Positions 715-31,198 of a stretch of DNA of 32,000 bases are shown here, one piece after another (positions within the stretch are counted from its first letter, which is position 1; each line of letters begins with the position of its first letter). Below the pieces are notes generated by a model. It did no database searches, was not told where the DNA came from, and was given only the letters and a program-made list of their open reading frames with translations. The position numbers and the translations under genes are program-made. The DNA is taken from positions 18,798 to 50,797 of the forward strand of contig JAVKCJ010000037.1 of assembly GCA_040222795.1 (NCBI GenBank). Reading direction: 5' to 3'. This DNA comes from Salinisphaeraceae bacterium (GTDB lineage Bacteria > Pseudomonadota > Gammaproteobacteria > Nevskiales > Salinisphaeraceae).

Positions 715-715
715 G

Positions 716-8027: not shown

Positions 8028-8036
8028 GTGCGTGCG

Positions 8037-10453: not shown

Positions 10454-10457
10454 GCCG

Positions 10458-14488: not shown

Positions 14489-14491
14489 CGC

Positions 14492-14506
14492 TATTATACC
14501 ATCCCC
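14492..14506 (-). promoter_or_regulatory. Left arm of the 15-bp perfect inverted repeat; extended -10 promoter facing the tus-like gene
   Basis: The minus strand reads GGGGATGGTATAATA and contains TGGTATAAT (TGnTATAAT). 7 nt separate the -10 from the A of ATG 14485. No Shine-Dalgarno sequence is present. Confidence 0.5.
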
Positions 14507-14623
14507 AGAGGAAGGGGTAGACGGACGTCTGTTTGCCGAACTTTTTTCTTCTATGCTCTTCTTCTATCCCCTATAACCGCCGCCGATCTTGTGCTACGAC
14601 GCGGACGGTCATGCAGCCCAAAA

Positions 14624-14638
14624 GGGGATGGTATAATA
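14624..14638 (+). promoter_or_regulatory. Right arm of the 15-bp perfect inverted repeat; extended -10 promoter facing the small basic ORF
   Basis: The plus strand reads GGGGATGGTATAATA. 6 nt separate the -10 from the A of ATG 14644. No Shine-Dalgarno sequence is present. Confidence 0.5.
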
Positions 14639-14643
14639 ACGAC

Positions 14644-14805
14644 ATGAAAGGCAAGACAACATCGGCGAGGCCACGAGTTCGCAATCGAGTCGCCCAGTCA
14701 GCCTGGGACCGGCAGAGCGGGCCACATGGCAAAACGCGCAAGGCGGATCGCCGTGCTGAGAAGATGGCCGATCGTCGTGCCCTTCGGGAGCGGCTGGACG
14801 ATTAG
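14644..14805 (+). CDS. Hypothetical small, highly basic protein (53 aa)
   Basis: ATG lies 6 nt after the extended -10. The protein is R/K-rich (MKGKTTSARPRVRNRV..RKADRRAEK..). Third-position GC is moderately coding-like. The region could instead be the 5' part of a non-coding antisense RNA. Confidence 0.35.
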   Translation: MKGKTTSARPRVRNRVAQSAWDRQSGPHGKTRKADRRAEKMADRRALRERLDD

Positions 14806-15911
14806 TCGTGCAATCGGCGGCCCACCCTGAGCACCGGGTCGAAGCTGTACAGATGTTCCCTGGGCGCGTTTCGGCAAGTCCCCACCAGGCGCCCGGGATG
14901 ACGCCAGCGAGACCCTTCGCGGATCTCCAGCTCGCCGCCACATAGCTTGCAGCGCCCCTCATAGGCGGACAGGCGCAACCGCTTGACCTCATAACCCCAC
15001 TGGTCCACACGCCGCTGTGGGTCATATTTGAACTCAAGCAGCAGGGTAGGGTGGTCAATGCGCGTTCGCATCCAGGCTGGGGCAACCACCACTCCAAGAC
15101 GTTGCACGCTGACGAACGCCCCGACTGAACGCCACAAGATCCAGCCGCTGAAAACGAGCACCACCATCGTGGTGACCCAAGGCCGCAGGCCTTCCTTGTC
15201 TGACGCGGTGATCACGGCGGCGTAGGCCACAACGATGCTCACAGCCACGATCAGGCTAACTGTCAGGTAGAAGAAGGCCCCCGACATACCTGCCAGTCTC
15301 AGGTTTCCCAGAAAGCGCCCGAGACGGGGCATCTCTGGCAGCCTCGACACTTCGTATCTCACCTCATTGTCGGCGAGCTTCGGGCTCGTGGCTTTGGGCG
15401 TGTCGTGGGCGTTCGACCGGGCACGGATCGCCAACCCATAGACAACCGCGTTGCCCGATCCGCCCGCACCGGCGTCGTAGCGAGCAAGCGCGACTTCAGC
15501 GGGAATCCCCGCGTCGGCCAGTCGCTCCTCCGCTACAGCCTTGGCTTCTTGCCACCAGCTACCCTCGCTCAGCGTCTTCCAGTAACGCCGAACCCGACCG
15601 GCAAACTCCGATCCGTAGTCCACCTCATAGCTGTCCGGCATGCGCCGACCGTTGCGAAGTTCGTAACCGGCCACGTAGAGTTCCCGGCCATCGAGCTCTT
15701 TTACCCAGCGACCGTCTGATGCCTGATCGCACAGGGCCATCGCCAGACATTGCGGCCAACGCTCTCGCCCGGGGCGATGCATGCTCTTGAGCACGTCGCT
15801 CACAACGGCCCAGTAGGCATCGACCGGGTTTTCAGCCCCCTTCTCGGACCCCTTGTAACCCCCATCGGGCGCTGTTTCGCTGCTCGTCGCCTCGCCAGAA
15901 TGAGCCTGCAT
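14802..15911 (-). CDS. Hypothetical membrane protein: N-terminal soluble domain, 2 TM helices, C-terminal zinc-ribbon-like domain
   Basis: 369 aa. TM segments GAFFYLTVSLIVAVSIVVAYAAVI and WVTTMVVLVFSGWILWRSVGAF. C-terminal CKLCGG..x21..C..x6..H. AGGT lies about 11 nt upstream of the ATG. I recognise no family. Confidence 0.6.
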   Translation of the reverse strand: MQAHSGEATSSETAPDGGYKGSEKGAENPVDAYWAVVSDVLKSMHRPGRERWPQCLAMALCDQASDGRWVKELDGRELYVAGYELRNGRRMPDSYEVDYGSEFAGRVRRYWKTLSEGSWWQEAKAVAEERLADAGIPAEVALARYDAGAGGSGNAVVYGLAIRARSNAHDTPKATSPKLADNEVRYEVSRLPEMPRLGRFLGNLRLAGMSGAFFYLTVSLIVAVSIVVAYAAVITASDKEGLRPWVTTMVVLVFSGWILWRSVGAFVSVQRLGVVVAPAWMRTRIDHPTLLLEFKYDPQRRVDQWGYEVKRLRLSAYEGRCKLCGGELEIREGSRWRHPGRLVGTCRNAPREHLYSFDPVLRVGRRLHD

Positions 15912-15931
15912 GTCTGATTACCTGAATTGAC

Positions 15932-15957
15932 GGCGGCCCGCCTGGGCCGCCTTTTTT
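15932..15957 (+). terminator. Canonical intrinsic terminator, oriented for the plus strand
   Basis: GGCGGCCC (15932-39), loop GCCT, GGGCCGCC (15944-51), then TTTTTT (15952-57). In minus sense the stem is followed by GUCAAUUC, a poor U-tract. Confidence 0.6.
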
Positions 15958-15960
15958 ATG

Positions 15961-16752
15961 TCATCGCCGGAAGTGAAGCACCCGCCCCTGGTTGAGATAG
16001 ATCGGAACCTGGTTCCGTCCTTTCTTCGGTGCCAGATAGATGTAGGCGTTGGCCGGCAGGCGCTGACTCCAGGCGCTCACGGCGCCGATCTCATGCCAAC
16101 GGGTCACCAGATTTCGATTCTGGTCATAAGCATTGAAGTAGCCCCGCACCATGTATGCCGGTCGCCCCCCTGCCAGCGGATTCCCTGGCGCCAGATCCGC
16201 GGTGACTTTGGCCGGAGCCCCACCACTGCAAATCTCAGTCGAGCACCCGCTGCCTTCCACGTAGATGCTGTCTCGCCGACGAACGCCCCTGCTGCCTTCG
16301 GGTATCCGACGCATGGTTAGGCCGGGGTTGAGCAGAAAATCATCGACATCACGCAGAATCATCTCGGTGACCATCGACTCGGCCCGTTCCGCGTCGCCAG
16401 CCTGTGCCTTGGGCACGATCACGGCCAACGCGTCGTTGCGAGCGATGTGCGGGGACGCGGCAAAGAAGCTGAGCAGATCGACGGCGCCAAACGCGGCGCC
16501 CTGCATCATGCCAAGCCCCGCGGTGACTGCCTCGGTCTCGCTGTCGAACTTGTCGTAGGCAGCCTGGCGTTCGATGGTTCGCTGCGTCTTGACGTCCTGC
16601 AGCGGCCCCTCCTCGTCGGTCAGCCCCTGGGCATGAGCGATATTCCATGCCCGGCTCTTGCTGGCCTGGTAATCCACTGTTTTCGGGGCACTGGCGCAAC
16701 CAGCCACTGCGGCAATCCCACACAGCAAAAGGACGGTCTTGATCGTGTTCAT
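15961..16752 (-). CDS. Hypothetical lipoprotein
   Basis: ATG 16752 is preceded by GGGAG at 8 nt. Signal peptide plus lipobox (LLLCGIAAVAGCAS). 263 aa. No recognised family. Confidence 0.65.
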   Translation of the reverse strand: MNTIKTVLLLCGIAAVAGCASAPKTVDYQASKSRAWNIAHAQGLTDEEGPLQDVKTQRTIERQAAYDKFDSETEAVTAGLGMMQGAAFGAVDLLSFFAASPHIARNDALAVIVPKAQAGDAERAESMVTEMILRDVDDFLLNPGLTMRRIPEGSRGVRRRDSIYVEGSGCSTEICSGGAPAKVTADLAPGNPLAGGRPAYMVRGYFNAYDQNRNLVTRWHEIGAVSAWSQRLPANAYIYLAPKKGRNQVPIYLNQGRVLHFRR

Positions 16753-16932
16753 TCTGGTAACTCCCAAGTGATGCGCGTCGCCGCGCTATCTCCCTTTGTG
16801 CCACGCCCCCGGTGATTTGCAACACCAGACCCAACATATCCCAAGGTAGCCTGTCCGCGTCGGGCGTCAGGGCTTAATCCCACCGAAAACGGCCGACTCT
16901 TCCACGCCCCTTGTCACCCGGTATGCGCTTTC

Positions 16933-17400
16933 ATGGAGCGCATGTTGCGACGAAGAGGCCTCCTAACCCCGCGTGTCCAAGCCCTTCTGGTGGCTGGGCT
17001 GACCGCTTGCCTATGGCTAACTGAAGCACATGCCAATCCCGCTGAACGCGGACAAGGGACTGTCTACTTTGACCAGGTCCGCGCCGCGGCCAGGTCCTGT
17101 GTCGCGGCTCACGGCTTCGAGCATCGGCTTGATTGCTACCAGGCAGCCAGCCCACGGGGCTGCCATGCCCAGGCTGAAAACCTTCTCGCCGACCCGGCCC
17201 GGCGAGCCCGCCAGAACGCCTGGTATTACTGCGTCGTGTCTTGCGCCGATGCCCATTTTTTCTCCCGCACGCTCGGGAGCTGTCGACGAGAGATTATCTT
17301 GCCTGCGGGGGAACCCTCGGCGCGCTACACTCCCGCTGACAAGTTTAGTACGTCGGTGATGCTGCCCGCCGGGCCGCTTCGTCGGGGTCGCCAGCCTTAA
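16933..17400 (+). CDS. Hypothetical secreted Cys-containing protein
   Basis: 155 aa. Signal-like LLVAGLTACLWLTEAHA. Several Cys residues. The start is uncertain (ATG 16933 or 16942). Confidence 0.45.
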   Translation: MERMLRRRGLLTPRVQALLVAGLTACLWLTEAHANPAERGQGTVYFDQVRAAARSCVAAHGFEHRLDCYQAASPRGCHAQAENLLADPARRARQNAWYYCVVSCADAHFFSRTLGSCRREIILPAGEPSARYTPADKFSTSVMLPAGPLRRGRQP

Positions 17401-17405
17401 CAGAC

Positions 17406-17816
17406 ATGACCCGAAGCCTAGTCTTGCTTGCGGCCACCCTGATGCTCGGGTGCGCCGCGCCGCAGCCGTCAAGCGAAGACATTCGAAACGAGATCCTATC
17501 CCTGTTTATATCGCCAGGCGGGGTGGAATACCTTCAGCTGACCAACTTTGAGCATCGCGCGGGGTACATTGATCGGCAGGGGGCCTACGTTACCCGTGTC
17601 GCCTACGATCTCATCTTCCCTCGCAGCTATGAGGAAATGATGGCCGAGGCAAGGCAACTTGTCTCCAACGGCAGAGAGAATGATGATCTGCTCTCCAGTA
17701 TGCGGGCATTTCGCCGGCAGTTCGGGGACTTCCCGGCCGGGCATCGCACACCCATGCAGCATAACCTCGTCCTTGTAGAGATCGAGGGCCAATGGAAAAT
17801 CGAGCAATCACAATGA
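17406..17816 (+). CDS. Hypothetical small lipoprotein
   Basis: 136 aa. Lipobox ATLMLGCA. Begins 5 nt after the previous stop. Confidence 0.6.
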   Translation: MTRSLVLLAATLMLGCAAPQPSSEDIRNEILSLFISPGGVEYLQLTNFEHRAGYIDRQGAYVTRVAYDLIFPRSYEEMMAEARQLVSNGRENDDLLSSMRAFRRQFGDFPAGHRTPMQHNLVLVEIEGQWKIEQSQ

Positions 17817-18424
17817 AAGGGCATCTGGCGATGATGATCCGTAAGCGCTGCATTGCAGCTATCATCGTGGCCATGTTCGCCACGGTCCCCAGCGTCGTGT
17901 CGGCCGAGTCCTATCTAACCTTTGATATCGGCCAGGACTCCTGGGAGAGCGTTCGCTACCGACTTTCCCGTCAAGCGGATTTTCTCCGAGGGCAGCCCAA
18001 CCCACTGGATTCCGAAGTTGGGCATGAGTCCCTAAATGCCAGCGGCTATCCGCCTTTTGAGGCATTCCCCGGCGACCTGATGAGTGCGACATTCAACTTC
18101 GATCACAACGCGGTCCTCTATCAGATATCGCTGACCGCGCTCAATGTAGAACAGACTCAAATCGAAGCGCTTGAGAAGAAATTCCGTGACCGGTACCAGG
18201 TCATTGATCAAACCAAAAAGCGATTTCAGACCCAAGTCATTTTCGACGCCAACCCTCAGGACGGCGCTGATGCCGGAGTGATGGTTGAGCTCGACGCATT
18301 CGGCGGGATGTACACGATCCGCTACACCCATCGTGATCGCCTTCAGGGGTTCAAGGATCGCATTGCCGAAATTGACCAAAAAAACTTGAGGGAAAGCGAC
18401 AGAATCCTGGATGAAATGTTGTAG
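17813..18424 (+). CDS. Hypothetical secreted protein
   Basis: ATGA overlap with the upstream stop. Signal peptide IAAIIVAMFATVPSVVSA. 203 aa. Confidence 0.55.
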   Translation: MKGHLAMMIRKRCIAAIIVAMFATVPSVVSAESYLTFDIGQDSWESVRYRLSRQADFLRGQPNPLDSEVGHESLNASGYPPFEAFPGDLMSATFNFDHNAVLYQISLTALNVEQTQIEALEKKFRDRYQVIDQTKKRFQTQVIFDANPQDGADAGVMVELDAFGGMYTIRYTHRDRLQGFKDRIAEIDQKNLRESDRILDEML

Positions 18425-18532
18425 CTCATCGCGACCGGCTTCAGTAACCCCGTCGACTAAGCGCGGCATTTGACGGCCACTCCCATGGCTAACTGAGGTT
18501 CACTGAGAGAGGACTCTCATTGGACCTTTGCC

Positions 18533-18952
18533 ATGCGCATAGCACCAAGCGACGTTCAGACAGGATTTTCGCTGCTTGAGCTGATGATTGTTGTCGCGCT
18601 CATCTCAATTCTCGTCTGCATCGCCATCCCCGGGTACCAAACCTACGTCCAAACCGCCCGGCAAACAGACGCTCAGCGCTTTCTGCTCGAGATGTCGTCG
18701 CGGATCCAGACGTATCGCCTAAGCAACCGCATTTATCCGGCTGGCCTGGGGAGCGATCCCGGGCAGATACCCATCAGCCTTCCCGACCGTCTGGACGACT
18801 ACTACAGCGTTTCCTACACCCTCGATGCCAATGGCACCCCCCCCGTTTATCGGGTTACGGCCACCCCTGTTCCAGATTCTCCCCAGGCGTCCCGTCCGGA
18901 GCTCACGCTGGTCAGCAATGGCCTTCGCTCCCCAGCTTCGGCGTGGAAATGA
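18533..18952 (+). CDS. pilE: Type IV pilin-like protein, PilE type
   Basis: Class III prepilin signal ..VQTG/FSLLELMIVVALISIL, followed by IPGYQTYVQTARQTDAQ, typical of PilE. Confidence 0.8.
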   Translation: MRIAPSDVQTGFSLLELMIVVALISILVCIAIPGYQTYVQTARQTDAQRFLLEMSSRIQTYRLSNRIYPAGLGSDPGQIPISLPDRLDDYYSVSYTLDANGTPPVYRVTATPVPDSPQASRPELTLVSNGLRSPASAWK

Positions 18953-19452
18953 TCGGTCCGTTCTTCCAGAAGGGGTTTACGCTACTCGACGCCTTGGTCG
19001 TGATAGCAGTGCTCGCCGTAGCTCTCGGGCTGGGTACGCCAGCATTCGACCACTACATTAAAGCCAGCTCTGTTCGCACATCTGCCTCCGAGCTGCAAAA
19101 GGCGTTCATCCTCGCTCGTACGGCCGCCATTGAACGTGCGGTTCCGGTGTATGTTTACCCTGATGCCAGTTGGGGGAAGGGCTTCGCCGTTACGGTGGCT
19201 CAGAATAAAACTCCAGAATCCTGCAGCAAGGATAGTACCGACTGCCTGCATCACATGACGCCTTCGGAATTCTCCCGCGCCAAGATTCGCGCGACAGATG
19301 CCGCTATTGAGTTCCTTCCGACTGGCGAATCCACGACTCCGACGACTCTCATCGTCTGTGCCGAAGATTACGGGGATCTCCGCACCATTCACTTGTTGGC
19401 AAGTGGGCGGACATTTGTCTTGCCGGACACGGGCGCTTGCGATGCGTCTTGA
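18943..19452 (+). CDS. fimT: GspH/FimT/FimU-family minor pilin
   Basis: Prepilin motif QKG/FTLLDALVVIAVLAV, then SELQKAFILARTAAIERAVPVYV, typical of the GspH/FimT family. Overlaps the pilE stop. Confidence 0.7.
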   Translation: MEMIGPFFQKGFTLLDALVVIAVLAVALGLGTPAFDHYIKASSVRTSASELQKAFILARTAAIERAVPVYVYPDASWGKGFAVTVAQNKTPESCSKDSTDCLHHMTPSEFSRAKIRATDAAIEFLPTGESTTPTTLIVCAEDYGDLRTIHLLASGRTFVLPDTGACDAS

Positions 19453-20008
19453 GCAGGGCGTCACCCTCATTGAGATTCTTATATCCCTCCTGGTCCTGAG
19501 TATCGGGCTGCTGGGCTTGGCCGGGTTGCAGGTGAGTGCTCAGCAACTCTCCATGGATGCTTACGAGCAAGAGCGCGCTGGATTGCTTGCTGACTACATC
19601 GTCGAACGTATCGCGTTGAATCGCGAGGCCCGGCAGTGCTACGGCTTTACCGATCCGGTTACCGGCGGTCCCGCGATCGGCCAGGGCGTCGAGATCGACC
19701 TGACTTGCACCGGGTTTGGCACTATCGCGACCCAAGAACTTGCCGAGGCCGATCTCGCAGCCTGGGAGCAAATGCTCGAAGGCGCGACTGAGACTCTCGC
19801 GGGAAACAACGTCGGCGCCATGGTCAACGCCCGAGGTTGCATTTGGCTTGATGCCGACGCCAATACCGCGACGATTGCGGTCACTTGGCAAGGGGAAATT
19901 CAGGCGGATGCGCCCCCGGCATCCCTCTGCGGCGCGAATCAATACGGCGACGAACGCTACCGCCGCGCGCTTATTCGCACCCTTGAGTTCGCGGACCTAG
20001 ACGCATGA
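19442..20008 (+). CDS. pilV: Type IV pilus minor pilin PilV
   Basis: Internal ATG 19442 gives MRLEQG/VTLIEILISLLVLSIGLLGLAGLQ, the canonical PilV N-terminus. The longer ORF-track start 19298 overlaps fimT. Confidence 0.8.
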   Translation: MRLEQGVTLIEILISLLVLSIGLLGLAGLQVSAQQLSMDAYEQERAGLLADYIVERIALNREARQCYGFTDPVTGGPAIGQGVEIDLTCTGFGTIATQELAEADLAAWEQMLEGATETLAGNNVGAMVNARGCIWLDADANTATIAVTWQGEIQADAPPASLCGANQYGDERYRRALIRTLEFADLDA

Positions 20009-20123
20009 GGCGCTCGCGCCAACAAGCGGGCTTTACCCTCATCGAGCTTCTGATCGCGCTCACCCTGGGCTTGCTCGTTATTGCGGCTGCTGGGGCAGTG
20101 TCCTTAGCCGGGTTCGGTCCCAC

Positions 20124-20987
20124 TCACACGGACGGTTTGGAAAGGGCTTCAAACTGCTGATCGAGTTTATCGAGTCTACGTTGCATCCTCGGGTTATGAA
20201 ATCGCTCGATGTAGTCGAAAACGTCTGAGCGAGCCTGGGCTCGGGTCAGGTATTTCCGTCGGCGGACCCGCTCGCGCTTGAGCACGCCGAAAAAGCCCTC
20301 GCAGGCGGCGTTATCACCGCAGTGGCCGACCGCACTCATGCTGCTGACGAGATTCTGGTCTTTGAGAAAGCCCTGCACCTCATGACTGGTGAATTGCGTG
20401 CCGCGATCCGAATGCAGGATCACCGGCTGGCCGGGGTCCTCACGACGTCCCAGCGCGGCGGTCACCGCATCCAGCACCAGCTGACGCTGCTGCGTCGCGC
20501 CCATCGACCAGCCGATCACGAGCTTGCTGTAAAGGTCGATCACCACGCACAGAAATAGCCAGCCTTCGGCGGTGCGGATCTGGGTGATATCGGTCACCCA
20601 TTTGGTGTTGGGCTCAAGCGCGGCGAAGTCGCGCTCGAGATGATTGGCGATGCCGATGGGTCGCAGCCCCGATGGCTTGTAACGCCAGGACCGGGCCACT
20701 GGGATCCCGTGGATGCCGTGTCGGCGCATCAGGCGTGCGACCCGATTGAGACTGGCCCGCTCGCCTTCAAAGCCGAGTTCTTCGTGCATGCGCCGGCGTC
20801 CCATCACGCCGAGATGATCGGCATGGATCGCCCGAATGCGGCTCAGTAGCCTGCGATTGTCACGTACCCGAGCACTGGGCCGGCGTTTCTGCCAGTCGTA
20901 GAAACCGCTGTGCGAGACCCGCAAACAGCGGCACATCAGCCGCACCGGATAGTCGCCGCGGCCAGCATCGATCGCCTGGTACTTCAA
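20124..20987 (-). CDS. IS3-family transposase OrfB (DDE), probably made as an OrfAB fusion by -1 frameshift
   Basis: DDE triad contexts [15 protein letters not shown] and [11 protein letters not shown]. The orfB frame stays open upstream to the T TTT TTG heptamer at 21029-21023. Confidence 0.9.
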
Positions 20988-21277
20988 TTCGATTCCCTGG
21001 CGAAGAATGTGGCCGCGTCTCGCAAAAAATCGCGTTCCTTTTTCAGGCGCGCGTTCTCCCGCTTGAGCCGGGCCACCTCCTCGTCGCGGGGCGTACCAGT
21101 GCCGCCGAAGGCGGTCCGGCCTTGCTCGTCGGTCTCGCGGCGCCAGCGACTGAGCAGGTTGGCGGCGATGCCAATGTCGCGGGCGACCTGGGTCACGCTG
21201 ACATCCGGATGCCGGGTCAATTCAACCGCTTCGCGCTTGAACTCGGGACTGAATCTTCTTCGCTTGGACATGGACAC
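20984..21277 (-). CDS. IS3-family transposase OrfA (HTH)
   Basis: 97 aa. [42 protein letters not shown] and a leucine-zipper-like tail, as in IS3 OrfA. Confidence 0.9.
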
Positions 21278-22223
21278 TCCTTTGGGCCATTGTGACGCCT
21301 TTCGTATGTGTCCGTGCTAGCGGGACCGAACCCGCCGGCACGTTGTCACATCAGTCCCTCGATCAATCCTCAACCGTCATGGAGCGTGGTGGCGCCGCCC
21401 TTCGCATGATCAAGCGTGAACTCATTCATGCTGGTTACTACGGGCGTTACGCCAACCTGGATAACCCCATCCCAGCGCCACCCGCGACCCCTAACCCCTG
21501 TGCCACTGACCTTGCATCTCTGCGTGTCGCTGCAGCGCTGCCAATCCAGGGTTATGACGCACCCACGGGGAAGCCCTTGCCTTGTCTGTCCGACAGCAAC
21601 CACATCGATGGCACTGACATTCTGGTTATTCGTCGCGCTTCGCCCATTCAGACGACAGGATCCTTATCCCCTTCCCGCGTCTATCTTCAGTCCAACGCGA
21701 TGGCATTAAGACTGGATAGTGGCGACGGCAGTTTTGATCTGACTGATCGCTTCGGTCTCCCGTCGGCGATACGCGAGTATTACGTCGATATTTACTTCAT
21801 CAGCCCCTGTCTTGTCACCACGGCCAATGAGTGCACAGCTGATGCTGATGGCGGCAACCCTATCCCTACCTTGAAACGACTCAGGCTTTCTAGTAACGGC
21901 GTAAGCCCAGTCTTCACCGAACAGCCTATGATCGAGGGGGTGGAGAATCTCCAGTTCGATTTCGGTCTCGACACGACCGAGGATGGCATCGTCGATCCGC
22001 CGTATGTCACCGCGCCGCTCACGCCCCCTGATTGGGCCGACGTGATTGCTCTTCAGGCATTCGTCCTGGCGCGGTCAATTGGCCCAGATGCCGGCGCCGC
22101 ATCTCAGCGCACCTATCACCTCGGGCTTGCTGGCAGCTTCGGCCCCTTTGCCGATCGCGTACTTCGCCATTCCTATGCGACCTCCATGCGTCTTATGAAT
22201 GTCGCAGGACGCCGAGAGCTCCC

Positions 22224-22658
22224 ATGACCATTGGTCGCCCGCAACCGCAGCGGGGCTTTGCTCTGGTGATCTCCCTGATTCTTCTGGCAGTCCTTTCCTT
22301 AATCGCAGCCAGTTCTGCCTCCCTGTCCAGGTTCGACGCACAACGAGTCTCCTTTCTCGAAAACCGTGCCGCGGTAAAGGATTCGTCTCTTCAGGCATTG
22401 GAACAAGCTTTGAGTGATCCGGCCTTTTTGAAAGGCGCAGCGACACGAGACCTCTCTCTCAACGCGGTCAATGTCACCGTGGCCGTGCCGCTATGCACTC
22501 GTGCCACCACAATGGCTGGGTTCAGTCTCAAGAACCCCCTATCTCTCGAACGCGCTTACTGGCGACTCGATGTCAGCGGGCAGGACACCGTCTCTTCCGC
22601 AGCCTTTCGTGCGCGCCAGGGGATTCGCACCATCCAGACCGCAGCAGGCTGCCCATGA
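22224..22658 (+). CDS. pilX: Type IV pilus minor pilin PilX
   Basis: ATGA overlap with pilW. N-terminus MTIGRPQPQRG/FALVISLILLAVLSLIA matches the PilX N-terminal domain pattern (no Glu5). 144 aa. Confidence 0.7.
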   Translation: MTIGRPQPQRGFALVISLILLAVLSLIAASSASLSRFDAQRVSFLENRAAVKDSSLQALEQALSDPAFLKGAATRDLSLNAVNVTVAVPLCTRATTMAGFSLKNPLSLERAYWRLDVSGQDTVSSAAFRARQGIRTIQTAAGCP

Positions 22659-25600
22659 AACACCTTCTCGCTTCCGCCTTGCTTGGCCTTGGCGTTCTGG
22701 CATGGCTCCCCGTTAAGGCCGAAGATATCGATCTGTACCGTCAGGACACGGGGAGCATTTCGGCCCCGGACGTGCTCTTTTTCATAGACAACAGCGCGAA
22801 CTGGAACGCCTCGATTGGCACGACCAGCAAGCGAGAGCTTGAGCATCAGGCGCTCACCACCTTCTTTAGCAATCCGGATATCGTCGGCACGATGAATGTC
22901 GGGATCATGCTCTTTTCCAAGGGCAACTCCCCGAAGGGAGGAAAGATCATCGAGTCGGTGAAGCCCCTTACCGAAAGCTATCGGCAGCATCTGTTATCTC
23001 GAATCGAAGAAGGTCTTCCCAAGACCAACAACGCCCCTTTGGCGCTATCGCTCGAAGAGGCCAGGCGGTACTACGGTGGTATTGCTCCGCGATCGGGGAC
23101 CCAGGACGGCAGCACCGGGGAAGACCGGTACGACACGGACGCCATTGAAGGCGACGGCAGCTATGATTCCCCCGGCAATAACACCGGCGGATGCGGTCGC
23201 CATTACATCGTTTTCATCTCCAATGGAGAGCCAGACAGTGGCGAAAACCGCGATGCGGAGAATCAGCTGCAAGCCATTGATGGGATACTGGATTCTGACC
23301 CGATCAACCTTGACCCGAGTCAGTTCGAGAGCAGCTGGGCTGACGAATACAGTCGCTGGCTTGCCAATAACCAGGTCATGCATGAGGGAATCCGTACAGC
23401 CTATCCGTCTGTTTACACCTATGTGATTGATGTCTTTGCGGATTCCGAGACCACCGACGACAATCAGCAATCCAACGGGAACAAGAAGAAGGGGCAGGGC
23501 GGCGGCGGGCAAAACGGCAATCGGAAATTCGAAAGCGCCCGAGCCCTCAATCGCAGCATCGCTGATCAGGGCAAGGGCCGCTATTTCACCGCGGCATCTG
23601 CCGCTGACGTGAATGACGCCCTGGTTTCAATTGCTGACGAGATCCAATCGGTCAATTCTGTGTTCGCCTCAACTGCGCTGCCCGTCTCGGTCAACGTGCG
23701 AGGCACAAACCTTAACCAGGTGTACCTGGGCGTATTCCGCCCCGATGGTGACGACACCACCCGTTGGCAAGGTAATCTCAAGCTCTTCGAGCTTGCCCTC
23801 GACGATGCCACCGACGAGCTCTTCCTTGCGGACCGCCATGGCAATCGCGCTCAGTCCGCTGTCACGGGTTTTATTGCACCAGGCAGCGAAAGCCACTGGA
23901 GTCATAGTTCCAGCTTCTGGGCCTTTTCTCCTAGTGGCACCCCGCCATCGGAAAGTGATCTCCCAGATGCGGAGGTGGTGGAGAAAGGCGGGGTCCACCA
24001 ACGCCTTCGCGACGCCGAAAGCAACGGCACGATAGTGGGCCAGCGTTCCGTTTACACTTGTGCAGGCGGGTGTACCCAGGGTGGCTTGCTATCCGATAAC
24101 CTGTTCGCCCCTTCCAATGCCGCAATCACTCAAGCGGATCTGGGAGCCGCTGACGTGGAAGATCGGGCCGACATCATCAATTGGGTGCTCGGGCTTGATA
24201 ACCATGAAGATGAGGACGGAGATGGCCAGCGCACCGATGCGCGCTCCTCGATTCACGGCGACGTCCTGCATTCGCGTCCGGCGTTGATCAACTACAACCG
24301 TGATGGCACAGATAACGACATCGTCGCCATCTACGGGGCCAACGATGGCCAGATACGCGCAGTGCAAGGAGGTTTCGGAGACCAGCGTGGCTCCGAGCTT
24401 TGGTCATTCATTCCTCCAGAGTTCTTCCCCCGTCTCAAAGCGCTGCGCGATAACGACGTCCGTGGTAAGTCTTACTTTGCCGACGGTAACGTCGTCCCTT
24501 ACATCGTTGATTCGAATCAGGACGGCGATCTCGCTGACGCAGGCGACAAGGCCTTCGTATACGTCGTCATGAGACGTGGTGGGAATTTCATTTATGCTCT
24601 GGACATCTCCAACCCCGACGCTCCACGCTTTCTATGGTCCATTTCGGATCAGACTGCAGGCTTCGCGGAGCTGGGTGAAACCTGGGGCGCCCCGGTAGTC
24701 GGCCGAATAGAGGCACACGACAGCCCAGTTGCCGTGATTCCCGGCGGGTACGACCCAGGTGCCGATGACCCAGAATCCAATGACTCCCGCAGCATGGGGC
24801 GCTCCATTTATGTGGTTGATGCTGTTACCGGCGCTTTGATCTGGCAGGCGAGCGGCAATCTCGATCCATCTGGCCCCGGCGCCTCGTTACTCGTTCCCGG
24901 GATGACCCACTCGATGCCGGCGGATGCCACGGCCATCGACCGAGACCAGAACGGTTTCCTCGATCGGATATACCAACCGGATACCGGGGGACAACTATGG
25001 CGGTTCGACATTGCCAATCCGGACCCATCGCAGTGGGAGGCGTCCCGTCTGGCCAGCGTCGGCGATGACCAGGAGTTTCTCTATGCGCCCGATGTGGTAG
25101 CTGGCGGAGACAGCGCAGGTGCCTTCGATGCAATTCTGATTGGCGCAGGCGATCGTGAAGACCCCTTCGATACCTCTGTGACCAACCGCTACTACATGAT
25201 TAAGGATCGGGCGGTAACCGAGTCACGTACAGGATATGCCACGGTCACGCTTGCCGACCTGCATGATGCCACCCCTGCAGATCTTCAGAACGGGGTTGCC
25301 TCAGCCCAAACGGCGCTGGACGCATCCAGTGGTTGGTATTTGACGCTCTCCAACCCTGGTGAAAAAGTCGTCAGTACAGCAACAACCATCAACGGGGTAG
25401 TGTTCTTCAACACCACCCAACCGCCGCCTGCTGATGCGCTGACCTGCTCTGTGAGTCTCGGTATAGCTCGACTCTACTCAGTGAGCTACAAGGACGCGAC
25501 CGCAGTAGCTGATCAAAGGGCCCCTGCTGGACTGGACGTGCAGGACCGCCATGTTGAAGCCCCCGGTGGGGGTTTCCCGCCATCGCCTGTCCCAGTCGTC

Positions 25601-25720
25601 GTTCAAATCGACGGACGAGAGCACCTGGCGGTCATTTCGGGCACAAATGTTCTCACCCCGCCCACGGTCAACCTAAACGTCCGGCAACGCGTCTACTACT
25701 ACGAGTCTGGCATTCGCTGA
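22655..25720 (+). CDS. pilY1: PilY1-like pilus tip adhesin with N-terminal vWA domain
   Basis: ATGA overlap with pilX. Signal peptide MKHLLASALLGLGVLAWLPVKA. vWA-like N-terminal region (VLFFIDNSANW .. ALVSIADEI). C-terminal beta-propeller-like region with EF-hand-like loops DSNQDGDLA (24509-24535) and DRDQNGFLD (24938-24964). Confidence 0.85.
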   Translation: MKHLLASALLGLGVLAWLPVKAEDIDLYRQDTGSISAPDVLFFIDNSANWNASIGTTSKRELEHQALTTFFSNPDIVGTMNVGIMLFSKGNSPKGGKIIESVKPLTESYRQHLLSRIEEGLPKTNNAPLALSLEEARRYYGGIAPRSGTQDGSTGEDRYDTDAIEGDGSYDSPGNNTGGCGRHYIVFISNGEPDSGENRDAENQLQAIDGILDSDPINLDPSQFESSWADEYSRWLANNQVMHEGIRTAYPSVYTYVIDVFADSETTDDNQQSNGNKKKGQGGGGQNGNRKFESARALNRSIADQGKGRYFTAASAADVNDALVSIADEIQSVNSVFASTALPVSVNVRGTNLNQVYLGVFRPDGDDTTRWQGNLKLFELALDDATDELFLADRHGNRAQSAVTGFIAPGSESHWSHSSSFWAFSPSGTPPSESDLPDAEVVEKGGVHQRLRDAESNGTIVGQRSVYTCAGGCTQGGLLSDNLFAPSNAAITQADLGAADVEDRADIINWVLGLDNHEDEDGDGQRTDARSSIHGDVLHSRPALINYNRDGTDNDIVAIYGANDGQIRAVQGGFGDQRGSELWSFIPPEFFPRLKALRDNDVRGKSYFADGNVVPYIVDSNQDGDLADAGDKAFVYVVMRRGGNFIYALDISNPDAPRFLWSISDQTAGFAELGETWGAPVVGRIEAHDSPVAVIPGGYDPGADDPESNDSRSMGRSIYVVDAVTGALIWQASGNLDPSGPGASLLVPGMTHSMPADATAIDRDQNGFLDRIYQPDTGGQLWRFDIANPDPSQWEASRLASVGDDQEFLYAPDVVAGGDSAGAFDAILIGAGDREDPFDTSVTNRYYMIKDRAVTESRTGYATVTLADLHDATPADLQNGVASAQTALDASSGWYLTLSNPGEKVVSTATTINGVVFFNTTQPPPADALTCSVSLGIARLYSVSYKDATAVADQRAPAGLDVQDRHVEAPGGGFPPSPVPVVVQIDGREHLAVISGTNVLTPPTVNLNVRQRVYYYESGIR

Positions 25721-25740
25721 TGGTCCCCTGCGGGTGAAAT

Positions 25741-25762
25741 GCCTGGTCATATATGACCAGGC
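25741..25762. repeat. Perfect 22-bp palindrome GCCTGGTCATATATGACCAGGC
   Basis: Read directly, 21 nt after the pilY1 stop. A third ATGACCA half-site lies at 25775-25781, and TCTAGC occurs twice (25765-70, 25792-97). Confidence 0.85.
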
Positions 25763-25817
25763 GATCTAGCCCCAAATGACCATCTTTTTGGTCTAGCGTC
25801 GGAGCTTCATTCAACGG

Positions 25818-26222
25818 ATGGAGTTTGCTATGAGCAAGAATTCTGACGCGTATCTGGATGACGACCAACCGCAGAAGGCTGCGGATCTCATGGGGGTCGA
25901 TCTCGATCCCAACTGCCATGACCGCGATCTGAATGAGACGATGACTCGTGGGGAATTTCTTCAGGAGTTCCTCCAGGACCAGTCGAAACAGCGGCTGCTG
26001 GCAATGCTTTACGGCGGAATTCATAACGCGGTAAATCCCAATTTTTCAAGAGCCAGACGCCGTCGCGGCCTGCTCGCCAAGGACCCCCATGCCGTCCTTG
26101 AAGTGATCGCCGATGGCGCCGCCACGCCTGAAAGAAAGCAGGAATTTGCCGTACTGGTCGAGTCGCTACGGGATTTCCTCCTCCGCGTTTATGACGAAAC
26201 CGCTCCCGACAATCCCGGCTAG
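25818..26222 (+). CDS. Hypothetical protein (acidic N-terminus)
   Basis: 134 aa, or 130 aa from ATG 25830, which has GGAG 6 nt upstream. No family recognised. Its stop overlaps the RES gene stop. Confidence 0.5.
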   Translation: MEFAMSKNSDAYLDDDQPQKAADLMGVDLDPNCHDRDLNETMTRGEFLQEFLQDQSKQRLLAMLYGGIHNAVNPNFSRARRRRGLLAKDPHAVLEVIADGAATPERKQEFAVLVESLRDFLLRVYDETAPDNPG

Positions 26223-26704
26223 CGGTTGAACAGCCGCCTGTCCCACCAAACGGGCATCGGCAGGCCCACCTCGATATCCGAGAATTCAGGGTGGTGCGGG
26301 TTGATGATCACGTTCTGCTCGAGCCGGGCGACGAAACACGGAACAAGCAAGATCGCGGATCGTGCCTCGGTTGCCCAGGAAACCGCGAATGCCCGGCTGG
26401 TTGCCTGTCGTCGCGCATCCCAGCCCGGCAACAAGTCTGGGGTGACGCATTCGTAACTCAGGCCGCGGGGCAGGGTGATCTCCACGTAGTGCTGGTTGGG
26501 CGGCATCAGGCCTGACGATGCCGCCAGCTTCTCCAGCATGGCGGCGCTGTACTGTCTGGACGCATAGATCACCGGCGTGTGCTCGTCGTTCCAACGCCCC
26601 GGGAATCGTGTCGATCCGGTGGCATCGAAAATCGGGAACACCCCGCCTGGGTCCCCGATTCGATAGGCCGTGAGTGTTCGGTCCAGCTTCTGGGCTGTGC
26701 TCAC
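26219..26704 (-). CDS. RES-domain toxin (RES/Xre type II TA system)
   Basis: 161 aa. R..E..S signature contexts (TAYRIGD, GRWN, VIYAS..AAMLE, SAILLVP). GTGA overlap with the upstream antitoxin gene. Confidence 0.8.
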   Translation of the reverse strand: MSTAQKLDRTLTAYRIGDPGGVFPIFDATGSTRFPGRWNDEHTPVIYASRQYSAAMLEKLAASSGLMPPNQHYVEITLPRGLSYECVTPDLLPGWDARRQATSRAFAVSWATEARSAILLVPCFVARLEQNVIINPHHPEFSDIEVGLPMPVWWDRRLFNR

Positions 26705-27135
26705 GCAGCCGAGCCGTACTTCAGTCTACCGAGGATATCTTCCACCATGCTTGCGCCGATATCCGTCCCCACGGCCACATCCAACGGGGTTTGGCCGTCA
26801 AGGAACATGTGGGGTCGCTTGAGGAACTCGCGAGCGGTGTGCTGATCCCGGAAAACGTCCTCTGCGGCGGCCAACACTCTCGCCGCTCTCTCGAATTTCT
26901 GGCTTTCAACGCTGTTAAGCCGCCCAGATTTACGACGTCGATCGAGCGTTGTTCCTTTCACGAAGAGCTCGTTGACTTGCCGATCAGCCAGCATCATAGC
27001 GGACTTGACTCGATCCACCACAGAGGTTGGGAACCCCTCCTCAATCCGTTTGATCAGCGCTAGGGGATTATCGAAGTCTCCTTCGTGCATTCCCAGAATG
27101 CTGGCCACGTTATGCGTCTCGGTTTGGATTTCCAT
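26701..27135 (-). CDS. Xre/MbcA/ParS-family antitoxin (DUF2384-type)
   Basis: 144 aa. C-terminal ..AREFLKRPHMFLDGQTPLDVA..G...V.DILGRL pattern typical of RES-partner antitoxins. GGAGG RBS. Confidence 0.75.
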   Translation of the reverse strand: MEIQTETHNVASILGMHEGDFDNPLALIKRIEEGFPTSVVDRVKSAMMLADRQVNELFVKGTTLDRRRKSGRLNSVESQKFERAARVLAAAEDVFRDQHTAREFLKRPHMFLDGQTPLDVAVGTDIGASMVEDILGRLKYGSAA

Positions 27136-27161
27136 CGTTCGTCCTCCGTCATGTGGGGTCC

Positions 27162-27189
27162 ATTATAACCCCAGATGGATGGTGCGCAA
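27162..27189 (-). promoter_or_regulatory. Putative sigma70 promoter of the TA operon with flanking short IR
   Basis: Minus strand: TTGCGC (27189-84), 16-nt spacer, TATAAT (27167-62). GGGGT/ACCCC (27155-59 and 27168-72) brackets the -10. Confidence 0.45.
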
Positions 27190-27513
27190 TGGGCCTGGTC
27201 GTGAATCCGCTCCTTTCTATGGGCACCGAGGCGTTTCCCCGGAGATCCCACAAGGGGTCGAGCACAAGGCGAGGCGTACCGCCGCTTAGTTTAAGCGCGT
27301 ATTCCGACGCTGGTGCATTTCCCCGCCTCGGTCACATCTCAGAATCACTCACGACAAGTGATCGTTATCATTAGTGTAATACCAGCGTTACACGCCTTTT
27401 TTCGGGCTTGCTTCCCGCATAAGAAGCCGTATATTGTGCATACGAAGGGAGTTTACGGGCTATATAAGATAACGCATATAACATCGCTCAGCCCGCAATC
27501 GAGGATGAATCAC

Positions 27514-27819
27514 ATGAAAGGCTGCCGAGATAACAGCTGTGTCATCGAAAAGCCCACCGGGATGGCCACCAATGGTGGCTGTCGATGCCGCCCTTGGCAG
27601 CTGCGAGCCGAGATCGTTCGGCTCCAGTCCGAGAACTCGAAACTCAAGAGCCTCGGGATCGAGCTCGCCCACGACGCGATCGCGGTCGCCGAAGCCACCT
27701 ACGCTGGCCGACAGACCTATCCTTCCTATCAGCGTCGCTATGACCGTGACACCGCCGCAGCCTCCGAGATGCTTGCGATCGCCAGGCCCGCCAGCGACAG
27801 TGACGATGACCCGGCCTAG
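27514..27819 (+). CDS. Hypothetical small protein with N-terminal Cys motif and a coiled-coil segment
   Basis: GAGG lies 9 nt upstream of ATG 27514. MKGCRDNSCVIEKPTGMATNGGCRCRPWQLRAEIVRLQSENSKLK. First gene of a translationally coupled operon. Confidence 0.55.
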   Translation: MKGCRDNSCVIEKPTGMATNGGCRCRPWQLRAEIVRLQSENSKLKSLGIELAHDAIAVAEATYAGRQTYPSYQRRYDRDTAAASEMLAIARPASDSDDDPA

Positions 27820-28519
27820 CCCTCGACCAACGATCAGCCACGCCGATCTGGTCGCCATCGGCGCCGGCTGGGCCAAGCGTGCACGCTCTCGCGGTGGGCC
27901 TGGCTCCGACATCGTCCTGACCGAACCCGGCGCAGGTTTCGGTCAGGAGTCTCCGGACGTGATCGGTTGGAAGTTGACCGGCCCGGATGGCGGCAGCGTC
28001 CTCATCGAAGCCAAGGCCAGTCGTTCCGATTTCCTGGCGGATATCAAGAAAGCCCACCGCGAAGGTGACGGACTGGGGAACTGGCGCTATTACCTCTGCC
28101 CCGATGATCTGATTCAACCGGAGGAATGCCCGGCCGGCTGGGGGCTGCTCTATGCCGGCCCTCGCCGGCGGGTGAGGGTGGTCGCCGGCGCTCATCTCGA
28201 CTCCCATTACAGCCGCCGCATCGAGGCACTTCGCCAATGGCGGTTCAACGCCGATCTCGAGGCAGAGCGCTATCTGCTGGTCGCCTGGCTTCGTCGCGTC
28301 GAGTCGCCAGAGGCCACCAACCGGTTAATCCGACTCGCCCGACAAGATGCCGCCGTCTATGGACGGGCGTACGAAAAAGAACGCAAGACCTGCCAACGTG
28401 TGTCCGATCGATTTCTCCGCCTGCAGCTGGCGATCGAACAGGCTGAGGCCGCCACCCCGGGCATCCGTGATTGCATCAATGACATCCTAGACCGCTATGA
28501 GCGTGGAGACCAACCATGA
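27806..28519 (+). CDS. PD-(D/E)XK nuclease-fold protein, MmcB-like
   Basis: Start ATG 27806 overlaps the upstream gene. The core ESPDVIGWKL..SVLIEAKASRSDFLADIKK..NWRYYLCPDDLI..CPAGWGLLYA fits the D..E.K motif and MmcB/DUF1052 layout. The ORF-track start 27539 is rejected. Confidence 0.55.
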   Translation: MTRPSPRPTISHADLVAIGAGWAKRARSRGGPGSDIVLTEPGAGFGQESPDVIGWKLTGPDGGSVLIEAKASRSDFLADIKKAHREGDGLGNWRYYLCPDDLIQPEECPAGWGLLYAGPRRRVRVVAGAHLDSHYSRRIEALRQWRFNADLEAERYLLVAWLRRVESPEATNRLIRLARQDAAVYGRAYEKERKTCQRVSDRFLRLQLAIEQAEAATPGIRDCINDILDRYERGDQP

Positions 28520-29415
28520 GTGATTCGCCCTCCCAGGATCGAACGGTCCAGCTCAACATTCCCGTCCCTGAGCGTCTCAAAGATCGGTTTGGTGAGATTG
28601 CCGAAAGCCTGGCTGCAGAATCCGGCGAGGACATTTCCCGCGCCGAGGTCTTCACCCGCCTTCTCGATGGCTTTACCGATCGCGCGTCATTCGGGGAGTC
28701 CGTCTCAGCCGAATGGCAAAGCGTATCGGCCCGGGTCGGGTTTCACGTCGCCGGGCTGGAGCGTCTGCTTCGCGAGGCGTATCTCTCGGCCGGTGAGGGC
28801 CGCCTCGAGGCGCAGCAGGAAACCGAACAGGCACGGGCCGCGGCCGATCAAGCCCAGCATCGCGCCGACGAACTCGATGCCGAGCTCAAACAGGCACAGG
28901 CGGATCTCAAGAATGCTGACAAGCAAATGCAGCGCGCCCTCGAGCAGCAGCAGCTTGAACACCAACAGGCTCTCGACAGCCTTGAACGGCAGATGGCCAC
29001 CGCCACGGCCAAGAATGAGCTGGTCGAAGAGCTGCGTGCCCAGCGTGACAATCACCAGAAGGCCCATGACGCCGTCCTGCAGCAGCTCACCGACATGGAA
29101 GAGCGTGTGGAGCAGCTCAAGGCCGAACTCGATGAGCGCGGCTTCAAGCTGGAGCAGGAGCGAGACCGTTATCACCAGGCATCCGCCAGTCTGGCCGAGG
29201 CCCAGGCTCGCGCGGCTTCTGCCACGGACCGTGCCCAGGACGCCCGCCAGGAACTCAGAACGCTGACTGACAAGAACAGTGAGCTGCGTGAACAGCTTGG
29301 CAGCCTCAAGTCGGACATCCGCGCCCGAGACGAGTTGATCAAGGAGCTGCGCAAGCCCAGCGGCCGCGCCGGCTCGAAGTCGGCCAAGTCGAAGCAGGGC
29401 GGTGCCACATCGTGA
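28516..29415 (+). CDS. Ribbon-helix-helix-like N-terminus plus long coiled coil (KfrA-like architecture)
   Basis: ATGA overlap with the upstream gene. N-terminus VQLNIPVPERLKDRFGEIAESL resembles a CopG/Arc beta-strand and helix. About 200 aa of Q/E/A/L/R heptad-like sequence follow, then a basic tail. Confidence 0.5.
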   Translation: MSDSPSQDRTVQLNIPVPERLKDRFGEIAESLAAESGEDISRAEVFTRLLDGFTDRASFGESVSAEWQSVSARVGFHVAGLERLLREAYLSAGEGRLEAQQETEQARAAADQAQHRADELDAELKQAQADLKNADKQMQRALEQQQLEHQQALDSLERQMATATAKNELVEELRAQRDNHQKAHDAVLQQLTDMEERVEQLKAELDERGFKLEQERDRYHQASASLAEAQARAASATDRAQDARQELRTLTDKNSELREQLGSLKSDIRARDELIKELRKPSGRAGSKSAKSKQGGATS

Positions 29416-30566
29416 GTGCCCTGGTGCCGGTTGAAGTCCCGGAAGCGCGGGTGGATTACCTCGTCAAGGAGGTAGGGGGCTTCGACCCGCAGGTCAGGGC
29501 ACGCATCCGCCATACCCTTCGCACTGCCATGTCCGAGAGCCTGACCCGCGGCATGGCCCGGGCCGCTCGCTATCACAAGACCTGGCTGCAGTTGCGGTTC
29601 GGGACTGACGCGGCCGACCGTTTCCCGGCCTGGGAACGAGACCATCTCATCACCTTCATCACCGACCACGCGTATGCGCCGCCGGCAAACATCGACGAGC
29701 TGCTCTGCCAACCTTCGTCGACGAATCAACGCAGCCTGAAGAAGCGCCCGGGCGGCTGGAAATTCGCGACCATCGAGCACCATCTTTCGATGCTCACAAC
29801 CGTGTGCCGTCTACGCGGCATGCCGGCGCCCAATGACGACGCCACGATTCGATACTTCCTCCAGTCCACCCGCAAGGCCATGGCCAAGGATCCCGGCCGG
29901 CGAGAGCGCCTTAGCCAGTCCACGCCGGCGATTACCCGTGACACCCTGTTCGAGCTGGTAACGCTGCTCGAGGCTGAAAGCCATGCGTCTCACCTGACGC
30001 TTTCCCTGCCGGCCAAACGTGATCTGGCCCTGCTGCTCCTCGGCTTTGGGGCAGGGGGGCGCCGTCGATCGGAGATCTCGGCCATACGCTGCGTCGACCT
30101 TGAGGCCGCGGACTATGACGATGAATCAACGCTTGCCCTGACTATCCCCCTGTCCAAAACGGACCAGAAGGGCGAGGGCAAACGCTACCTGCTTCCCCCG
30201 GTTGCCGCCTCGGCGGTCCGCGACTGGCTGTCCACGGCGGATGTCGATGCAGGTCCCGTCTTTCGTCGTATCAGCAAATCCGGTCGCGTGCTTCCCTACG
30301 GACTGACCCCCGATGGCGTCTACTACGTGCTCAAGGCCCGTTTTAAGTCCGTGGGCAAGGATCTGAGCCCCCATTCCTTGCGGGCTGGCTACGTCACTGA
30401 AGCCGGCCGTCAGGGCAGGGACCAGGGGCAAACCATGCGCATGACCGGGCATCGTTCGGTCAGCGCATTCATGGGCTATTTCGACGCCGGCGCGCTGCAG
30501 AAGAACGCATCTGTCGAAGTCCTGGGTGAAGCCCTATCGTCCGCGAAGAAAAAATCCGGCCAGTGA
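29412..30566 (+). CDS. Tyrosine-type site-specific recombinase/integrase
   Basis: GTGA overlap with the upstream gene. Catalytic contexts GGRRRSEISAIRCVDL (R), HSLRAGYVT (HxxR) and GHRSVSAFMGYF (H..Y). Confidence 0.85.
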   Translation: MSALVPVEVPEARVDYLVKEVGGFDPQVRARIRHTLRTAMSESLTRGMARAARYHKTWLQLRFGTDAADRFPAWERDHLITFITDHAYAPPANIDELLCQPSSTNQRSLKKRPGGWKFATIEHHLSMLTTVCRLRGMPAPNDDATIRYFLQSTRKAMAKDPGRRERLSQSTPAITRDTLFELVTLLEAESHASHLTLSLPAKRDLALLLLGFGAGGRRRSEISAIRCVDLEAADYDDESTLALTIPLSKTDQKGEGKRYLLPPVAASAVRDWLSTADVDAGPVFRRISKSGRVLPYGLTPDGVYYVLKARFKSVGKDLSPHSLRAGYVTEAGRQGRDQGQTMRMTGHRSVSAFMGYFDAGALQKNASVEVLGEALSSAKKKSGQ

Positions 30567-30582
30567 AATTGAGGTACCCACC

Positions 30583-31104: not shown

Positions 31105-31198
31105 CTCGGGACTGTTGCGCACACCAGCCAGGTTGGCCACTCTCTGCGCTGCCATCAAGTAGGCCGTCGCAGCACTCATCATTGGATGAAAATCACAC

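Follow-up and report, generated by a model that had tools for sequence, protein, structure and literature searches.

A type IVa minor-pilin and PilY1 gene set inserted in an F-type conjugative element of a Salinisphaeraceae bacterium

How would the genes that prime type IVa pili and form their tips come to lie beside the transfer genes of a conjugative element, and what could they do there? The question is raised by a 32,000-nucleotide stretch of DNA (hereafter the window: positions 18,798 to 50,797, forward strand, of contig JAVKCJ010000037.1, assembly GCA_040222795.1) from a metagenome-assembled genome (MAG) of a Salinisphaeraceae bacterium. An earlier reading, made from the sequence alone, had proposed that a six-gene type IVa minor-pilin/PilY1 set at 18533-25720 is carried there as cargo of an F-type element and is interrupted by an insertion sequence (IS). 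Type IVa minor pilins and PilY1 prime pilus assembly and end at the pilus tip. Our analysis makes it probable that a complete priming and tip module of this kind was captured in one piece, 7.3 kb long, by a MOBH/F-type element, in the variable region that follows traN, and that such a module would work through the pilus machine of its host. Profile searches of the open reading frames (ORFs) in the window found all six families (pilE, fimT, pilV, pilW, pilX and pilY1), and the features of the cassette are as follows (values are E values):

18425-18532, forward strand: non-coding leader of 108 bp at the left end of the insert
18533-18952, forward strand: pilE-like minor pilin, 139 aa (Pfam ComP_DUS 1.2e-10 and N_methyl 7.5e-6; leader MRIAPSDVQTG/FSLLE)
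18949-19452, forward strand: fimT/fimU (GspH-like) minor pilin, 167 aa (Pfam GspH 1.5e-9; leader ...QKG/FTLLD)
19442-20008, forward strand: pilV minor pilin, 188 aa (NCBIfam TIGR02523 type_IV_pilV 7.7e-18, above cut-off)
20005-20109, forward strand: 5' part of pilW, 35 codons (N_methyl 9.7e-10; leader ...QAG/FTLIE)
20110-21333, reverse strand: IS3-family insertion sequence, 1,224 bp (orfA 21277-20984, orfB 20987-20124; Pfam HTH_Tnp_1 1.2e-17 and rve 4.2e-24)
21337-22227, forward strand: 3' part of pilW (Pfam PilW PF16074 1.1e-17)
22224-22658, forward strand: pilX, a GspK-like tip pilin, 144 aa (PilX_N 6e-5, below cut-off; leader ...QRG/FALVI)
22655-25720, forward strand: pilY1, 1021 aa, with a signal peptide (Pfam T4P_PilY1 PF05567 6.5e-12)

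The set has the makings of an ordinary priming operon. ATGA overlaps, indicating translational coupling, join pilW to pilX and pilX to pilY1, as the sequence-only reading had it, and also pilE to fimT (the fimT start being the ATG at 18949, inside the overlap) and pilV to pilW. Prepilin leaders could be read on all five pilin-like proteins, and the four core minor-pilin classes GspH, GspI, GspJ and GspK are all represented (by FimU/T, PilV, PilW and PilX). Position 5 is Ile in PilX, which thus lacks Glu5, and Asp instead of Glu in FimT. Tip pilins of the GspK class lack Glu5, and the identity of PilX also rests on its having the same position and size as pilX in chromosomal operons. For pilY1, the longest ORF (start 22493, 1075 aa) was rejected in favor of the start at 22655, in the ATGA overlap with pilX; the 1021-aa product from 22655 is on record, and the 1075-aa version is not. 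The C-terminal beta-propeller of this protein was recognized with the family profile, which matches Pseudomonas aeruginosa PilY1 (3HX6) at 1.6e-19; a single-sequence phmmer search against the PDB gave no match. A loop in the propeller, DRDQNGFLD, has what we take to be the form of the calcium site described for PilY1. An AlphaFold2 model built from 19 homologues (mean predicted local distance difference test score [pLDDT] of 72.8) places an alternating strand/helix domain at residues 39-335, and a Foldseek search with the model returned 3HX6 as its top match (5.9e-19, template-modeling [TM] score 0.62), together with the vWA-containing 4jdu (TM 0.63), SpaC (6m48) and an integrin (9p98). As to the proposed vWA-type PilY1, the fold model makes a vWA-like domain in the N-terminal half probable, whereas the match by sequence falls below the cut-off (VWA_2, E = 0.035). 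Many PilY1 proteins, though not all, have a vWA domain.

To establish where the operon lies relative to the element, the window was compared with two sister elements, one in Spectribacter acetivorans P385 (loci L006, L007 and L097), which was found on a 232-kb contig through relatives of TraN, TraC and the recombinase in clusters of ≥90% identity, and one on a Logan contig (L096, run SRR23272284). By BLAST, the window matches P385 over 542-17827 at 95% identity (97% over 13562-17827), over 17855-18382 at 89% and over 25742-32000 at 92%; 18383-25741 has no counterpart in the P385 element. The genes flanking this gap, o203 and o130, are about 100 to 145 bp apart in P385 and L096, and at this point the window has its 7.3-kb insert, which replaced about 57 bp of intergenic DNA. 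The captured block is the operon exactly: its left end lies 108 bp before pilE and its right end 21 bp after the pilY1 stop codon. On the left, similarity to the sisters stops at or just before the o203 stop codon (BLAST end 18382), ahead of the 108-bp leader; on the right, similarity to P385 and L096 resumes at 25742, at a perfect 20-bp palindrome, CCTGGTCATATATGACCAGG (25742-25761), upstream of o130. Because backbone of the element lies on both flanks, the operon is an insertion inside the element and not a chromosomal operon beside an element boundary, the case that the sequence-only reading had raised against itself; its description of the operon as cargo stands. The junctions are no assembly chimera, since Logan assemblies made independently from two sequencing runs show them with 100% identity: contig L004 extends from traE to pilY1, and contig L001 from pilE into the right-hand backbone. 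The source population is represented by runs SRR26209246 and SRR26209069, and the MAG includes proteins MEQ9418082-84.

Other observations concern the site itself. The palindrome CCTGGTCATATATGACCAGG is identical in L096 and degenerate in P385, and might serve as an operator, or as a site prone to recombination that marks out a hotspot for cargo. Identity to the sisters is lower beside the cassette (88-89% in 17855-18382 and 25742-29446, versus 95-97% over 542-17827), a sign that a longer stretch of DNA around the hotspot may have a history of its own. In P385, an IS605-type TnpB gene lies between o136 and o203 (L007 17445-18713), about 0.6 kb from the cassette site, and a TnpB fragment adjoins traG (L097 11472-11825); the region around the cassette site seems to collect insertions. 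The Logan assembly of run SRR26209246 breaks inside pilE (18890-18900), where contigs L005 and L001 overlap by 11 bp, and in run SRR23274478 a 99.5%-identical variant (L009, a contig of 28,307 bp) should, by arithmetic, end near window position 18,000; populations may be polymorphic around the cassette. A scan of JGI metagenomes with the o130 protein returned no relatives and no further copies of the insertion site.

The interruption of pilW was confirmed, and the inserted element has the properties of the IS3 family: two overlapping ORFs (HTH, then DDE/rve), inverted repeats (20109-20145 and 21298-21334; 37 nt, imperfect), a direct 3-bp target duplication (GCC at 20107-20109 and 21334-21336) and a fitting size. 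It splits pilW after codon 35, and the same insertion is present in Logan assemblies of two sequencing runs. Removal in silico of the 1,227 bp at 20110-21336, the repair that had been proposed earlier and an interval that comprises the IS plus one copy of the duplication, yields a single PilW frame of 331 aa, which is 34-45% identical to chromosomal PilW proteins over about 330 to 355 residues. The cassette is probably inactive in the copy seen here. The intact target duplication, both transposase ORFs and five intact pil neighbors suggest that inactivation was recent.

Relatives of the set bear out the view that it is normally chromosomal. Among 5.8 billion clusters, no PilY1 protein is more than 49% identical to that of the cassette. 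Genomic context was inspected for four PilY1 relatives (about 46-49% identical; P0002, P0008 and P0025 of S. hydrogenooxidans among them), and all are chromosomal with the same gene order; the operon of P0002 adjoins ispH-fkpB-lspA-ileS-ribF-murJ-rpsT, which is presumably the classical position of the operon in Pseudomonas. Among 160 related loci (the 80 best each from GTDB species representatives and JGI metagenomes), GTDB loci with enough upstream sequence mostly keep the six-gene order, and homologues of the element's transfer, relaxase, coupling and Rep genes lie within 10 kb of none (0/160), a count in which only F-type/MOBH homologues were detectable and many loci were short. In PLSDB, tblastn matched PilY1 in 12 of 72,556 records and PilW in three, all of them chromids, megaplasmids or chromosome-sized records. 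A PilY match in "Legionella adelaidensis plasmid 9" was rejected as a plasmid precedent because carB, clpB, mpl and ftsK in that record mark it as a piece of chromosome. No relatives of PilY1 were found among IMG/VR viral contigs, and full-text literature searches found no report of a minor-pilin/PilY1 cluster on a plasmid or integrative element.

The cassette resembles chromosomal fimU-pilVWXY1E-type operons (P. aeruginosa, and the form found in Spectribacter, Salinisphaera, Halofilum and Burkholderiales) in its six families, their order, gene sizes, coupling and the PilY1 propeller. It differs from them in lying within a conjugative element, in its IS-interrupted pilW and in being 25-49% identical to any known copy (tblastn). 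In a neighbor-joining tree (no bootstrap) that included chromosomal copies, PilY1 branched beside, but outside, the Salinisphaeraceae chromosomal group; members of that group are 71-97% identical to each other and 50-53% identical to the element's PilY1 (trimmed alignment columns). The other five cassette proteins are 25-48% identical to chromosomal relatives. These distances show that the cassette is no recent copy of a sampled host operon, and its donor is, on this comparison of sequences, unsampled. The proportion of G+C at third codon positions is lower in the pil genes (0.61-0.69) than in the tra genes (0.70-0.80) except traV (0.64), which, with the tree, speaks for a foreign origin of the cassette.

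The remainder of the window is backbone of the conjugative element, with the following genes:

76-4686, forward strand: traE, traK, traB, a dsbC-like gene, traV and a TraA/TrbC-like conjugative pilin (TraE 2.2e-31, TraK_C, TrbI 2.6e-31, TraV 6.8e-15; NCBIfam TraA_gammapb 4.3e-31)
4755-10453, forward strand: traC ATPase, a small ORF, an S26 peptidase (trhF-like), a trbC-traW fusion and traU (TraC_F_IV 2.2e-73, Peptidase_S26 1.1e-18, TrbC_Ftype, TraU 4e-82)
10458-13598, forward strand: traN, mating-pair stabilization (F_T4SS_TraN 6.9e-29, VWA 1e-5; NCBIfam PRK14876 4.4e-82, below its cut-off)
13592-14488, reverse strand: Tus/Ter-like gene (Pfam Ter 2.3e-7)
14802-15911 and 15961-16752, reverse strand: o369 and o263, no assigned family, same order in P385
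17406-17816 and 17813-18424, forward strand: o136 and o203, no assigned family, same order in P385
25830-26222, forward strand: o130, 130 aa, no assigned family, also in P385 and L096
26219-27135, reverse strand: RES toxin/Xre antitoxin pair (Pfam RES 6e-20, Xre_MbcA_ParS_C 1.4e-13)
27959-30566, forward strand: overlapping genes for 186-aa, 299-aa coiled-coil and 384-aa tyrosine-recombinase-like proteins (weak Phage_integrase and XerA/XerC matches)
31196-32000, forward strand: 5' portion of a gene for an MmeI-like restriction-modification protein, cut off by the window edge (placed by alignment to genes of L006 and L096 that have MmeI_N, MmeI_hel and MmeI_Mtase)

The F-type set TraE, TraK, TraB, TraV, TraC, TraW, TraU, TraN and TrbC is all present within 76-13598, and the block at 76-4686 is 95% identical to that of the P385 element. 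The end of traN (13598) is 4.9 kb upstream of pilE, so that the operon does lie a few kilobases from traN as first described. Further genes come from a Logan contig that shares a 100%-identical overlap with the window: an SLT lytic transglycosylase, an FlhC-like (SetC-like) regulator upstream of traI, a TraI_2 (MOBH) relaxase, TraD, a DtrJ-like protein and traL. For traF, traH, traG and a Rep_3 initiator, which lie further upstream, the P385 sister is the only source. By this gene content, the backbone is a MOBH/F-type conjugative element. The Rep_3 protein of P385 (L097 19134-20444) is similar to plasmid initiators in 584 PLSDB records; together with the Tus-like gene it suggests a replicon that is a plasmid or derives from one, while the location of the P385 copy within a 232-kb contig weighs the other way. 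The source contig of the window (59,844 bp) is about the size of the whole element as reconstructed from P385, where the shared region is followed on the right by the MmeI gene, a Tn3 transposase, a 429-aa integrase and then metabolic genes. No tRNA gene that could mark an attachment site was found in the window or in P385 loci L006 and L007, and a megablast search of 17000-27000 against PLSDB returned no match.

The element shares with SXT/R391, IncC and IncP-7 an FlhC-like activator, TraI_2, TraD and the blocks traLEKB-V-A, dsbC-traC-trhF-traWUN and, as seen in its P385 sister, traFHG; the gene layout recalls these elements, in which a MOBH relaxase goes with F-type transfer genes set in blocks and parted by variable regions, and we take the position of the cargo after traN to match a hotspot of SXT. 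It differs from them in its TraN, which is only about 26-32% identical to any PLSDB plasmid TraN, in the Rep_3 initiator of its sister and in the Tus-like gene of the window. Membership in SXT/R391 was rejected, as neither a prfC junction nor an SXT-type integrase was seen and the sister carries a Rep_3 gene.

Several of the backbone genes have features of their own. TraN is unusually long (1046 aa) and has a VWA domain (residues 223-397) ahead of its TraN domain; alignments with TraN proteins of PLSDB mostly begin at residue 340-440, three of them near 140, and a homologue search with TraN returned only the query itself. The trbC-traW fusion (8028-9275) encodes a single 415-aa protein with TrbC at residues 108-195 and TraW (TIGR02743) at 226-411. 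The UniRef label "CRISPR type III-A-associated protein Csm2" on the P385 homologue of o130 was set aside as unreliable, o130 being without a Pfam or NCBIfam match. The RES/Xre-MbcA-ParS pair, just downstream of the cassette, is kept in all three element variants, its RES protein being shortened to 106 aa in L096. The trio of 186-, 299- and 384-aa genes is conserved in P385 and L096 and may form a module for resolution or integration of a kind not yet described; the 384-aa protein has C-terminal HxLR...GH...Y motifs by inspection, and the 186-aa protein resembles a PD-(D/E)xK nuclease by eye only.

What the cassette might do in such an element is constrained by what it lacks. As the sequence-only reading had stated, the window shows no PilA, PilB/C/D or PilM-Q domain in Pfam scans that covered its 40 largest or best-placed ORFs, and no major pilin, assembly ATPase, platform protein or secretin was found in the 10 kb upstream of traK or in the regions of the sister elements that were inspected. 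The R64 thin pilus and the mating pili of the PAPI-1/ICEclc type are complete type IVb systems, each of which brings a pilin, an ATPase and a secretin of its own. The cassette is like them in placing pilus genes on a conjugative element, and unlike them in being a type IVa tip and primer set only. Under the reading we favor, and in a host with a type IVa machine of its own, the host prepilin peptidase would process the five pilin-like proteins of the cassette; these pilins would form, with PilY1, an alternative priming complex within the host machine; and the host major pilin would polymerize under this complex, giving pili with a foreign PilY1 tip adhesin. Loss of PilW would probably abolish this function unless the host PilW substituted. 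The same reading, to which as a whole we give good but not strong confidence, treats the pilus module as a recently silenced accessory trait and not as part of the transfer apparatus. A role of the cassette in mating is possible, and we do not favor it because the sister elements are without the cassette.

A number of points weigh against this reading. The function of the module is predicted from sequence, and the presence in the host of a pilus machine, and of a further minor-pilin set on its chromosome, is assumed from what relatives have. That a 46-50%-diverged tip set would be compatible with the host major pilin is likewise assumed, by analogy with Myxococcus xanthus, whose PilY1/minor-pilin sets are taken to be interchangeable in use. 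The record consists of a single IS-disrupted lineage from a MAG: at 90% clustering each pil protein is a singleton (one lineage and perhaps a single population), every observed copy of the cassette carries the IS, and the repaired PilW is absent from a collection of 15 billion proteins, with no active version on record. Direct or inverted repeats of ≥8 bp are absent from the cassette borders, which therefore bear no signature of capture, and a promoter scan of 17700-26300 found no sigma-70 promoter there and none upstream of pilE.

Some of these same points would suit a passive hitchhiker, a stray chromosomal fragment caught by illegitimate recombination, never functional in its present hosts and now decaying. 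Such a history would account for an IS in pilW of all copies with no intact version on record, for borders without the signature of a dedicated mobility mechanism and for a cassette that is a singleton. However, the five genes other than pilW are full length, their start and stop codons are coupled and their motifs conserved, the block matches the operon exactly (108 bp before pilE, 21 bp after the pilY1 stop), and the intact duplication and transposase genes of the IS make the disruption recent, so that we regard this history as rather unlikely. Somewhat less credit still is due to the idea that the module serves the element by re-tipping the resident type IVa pili of the donor, which would then grab recipients or surfaces and raise conjugation in liquid in the manner of the complete type IVb pili of R64 and PAPI-1. 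The distance of 4.9 kb from traN, within the transfer-gene region, would fit it, as would the probable adhesin-type vWA domain of PilY1 and the VWA domain of the element's TraN, but two close sister elements keep an intact transfer set without the module, the only known copies are IS-disrupted and no regulatory link to the tra genes was seen.

We consider it very improbable that the module interferes with host pili, a foreign tip set competing with the resident one and so changing phage sensitivity or lowering DNA uptake to the benefit of the element. Mobile elements commonly target competence and pilus functions (PMC12378983), and the first gene of the cassette belongs to the ComP_DUS pilin family, but the same review mentions no element-borne minor-pilin sets, and the module has the look of a complete priming set of the ordinary sort, not of a truncated inhibitor. 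An origin of the window in ordinary chromosome, with the host's own set beside an integrated element, or in an error of assembly or binning, might be entertained because the window comes from a MAG and the P385 sister lies in a 232-kb contig. It is already contradicted by backbone that reaches at least 6.2 kb beyond pilY1 on the right and 18 kb beyond pilE on the left, by the single Logan contigs from two runs that bridge both junctions at 100% and by the different neighbors of the chromosomal operons of relatives, and we give it next to no weight.

The preferred reading, that of a captured module dependent on the host machine, has counterparts in chromosomal PilY1 clusters. M. xanthus has several PilY1 paralogs, usually encoded with minor pilins (PMC13190605). 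Horizontal acquisition, based on phylogeny or on G+C content at third codon positions, has been inferred for Myxococcus PilY1.3 (PMC13190605) and for such a cluster in Pseudomonas sp. SCT (PMC6505155); the text of the former study never uses "plasmid" or "mobile." The cassette is like these clusters in being an alternative or additional tip set that would share one pilus machine, and unlike them in that they are chromosomal with no vehicle identified, whereas here the vehicle is visible. What is new in the locus is the pairing of two known things; the machinery itself is of a familiar kind.

Whether a type IVa pilus is made, and to what its tip attaches, is decided by the minor pilins and PilY1. 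PilY1 clusters show phylogenetic signs of horizontal transfer, and here the carrier can be seen, together with the empty site in its sister elements. If the repaired set works with a host machine, specificity of adhesion or surface sensing could be swapped between bacteria by conjugation without the roughly 15 other pilus genes. A bolder proposal, which we think has only a small chance of being right, is that conjugative elements spread a stand-alone type IVa tip cartridge that takes over the pilus machine of the recipient and alters its adhesion, and that could serve the element through capture of recipients or by blocking DNA uptake or pilus phages. If true, pili would diversify in this way by a route other than that of complete plasmid-borne type IVb pili, and the horizontal transfer of PilY1 clusters implied by phylogenies would have a concrete vehicle.

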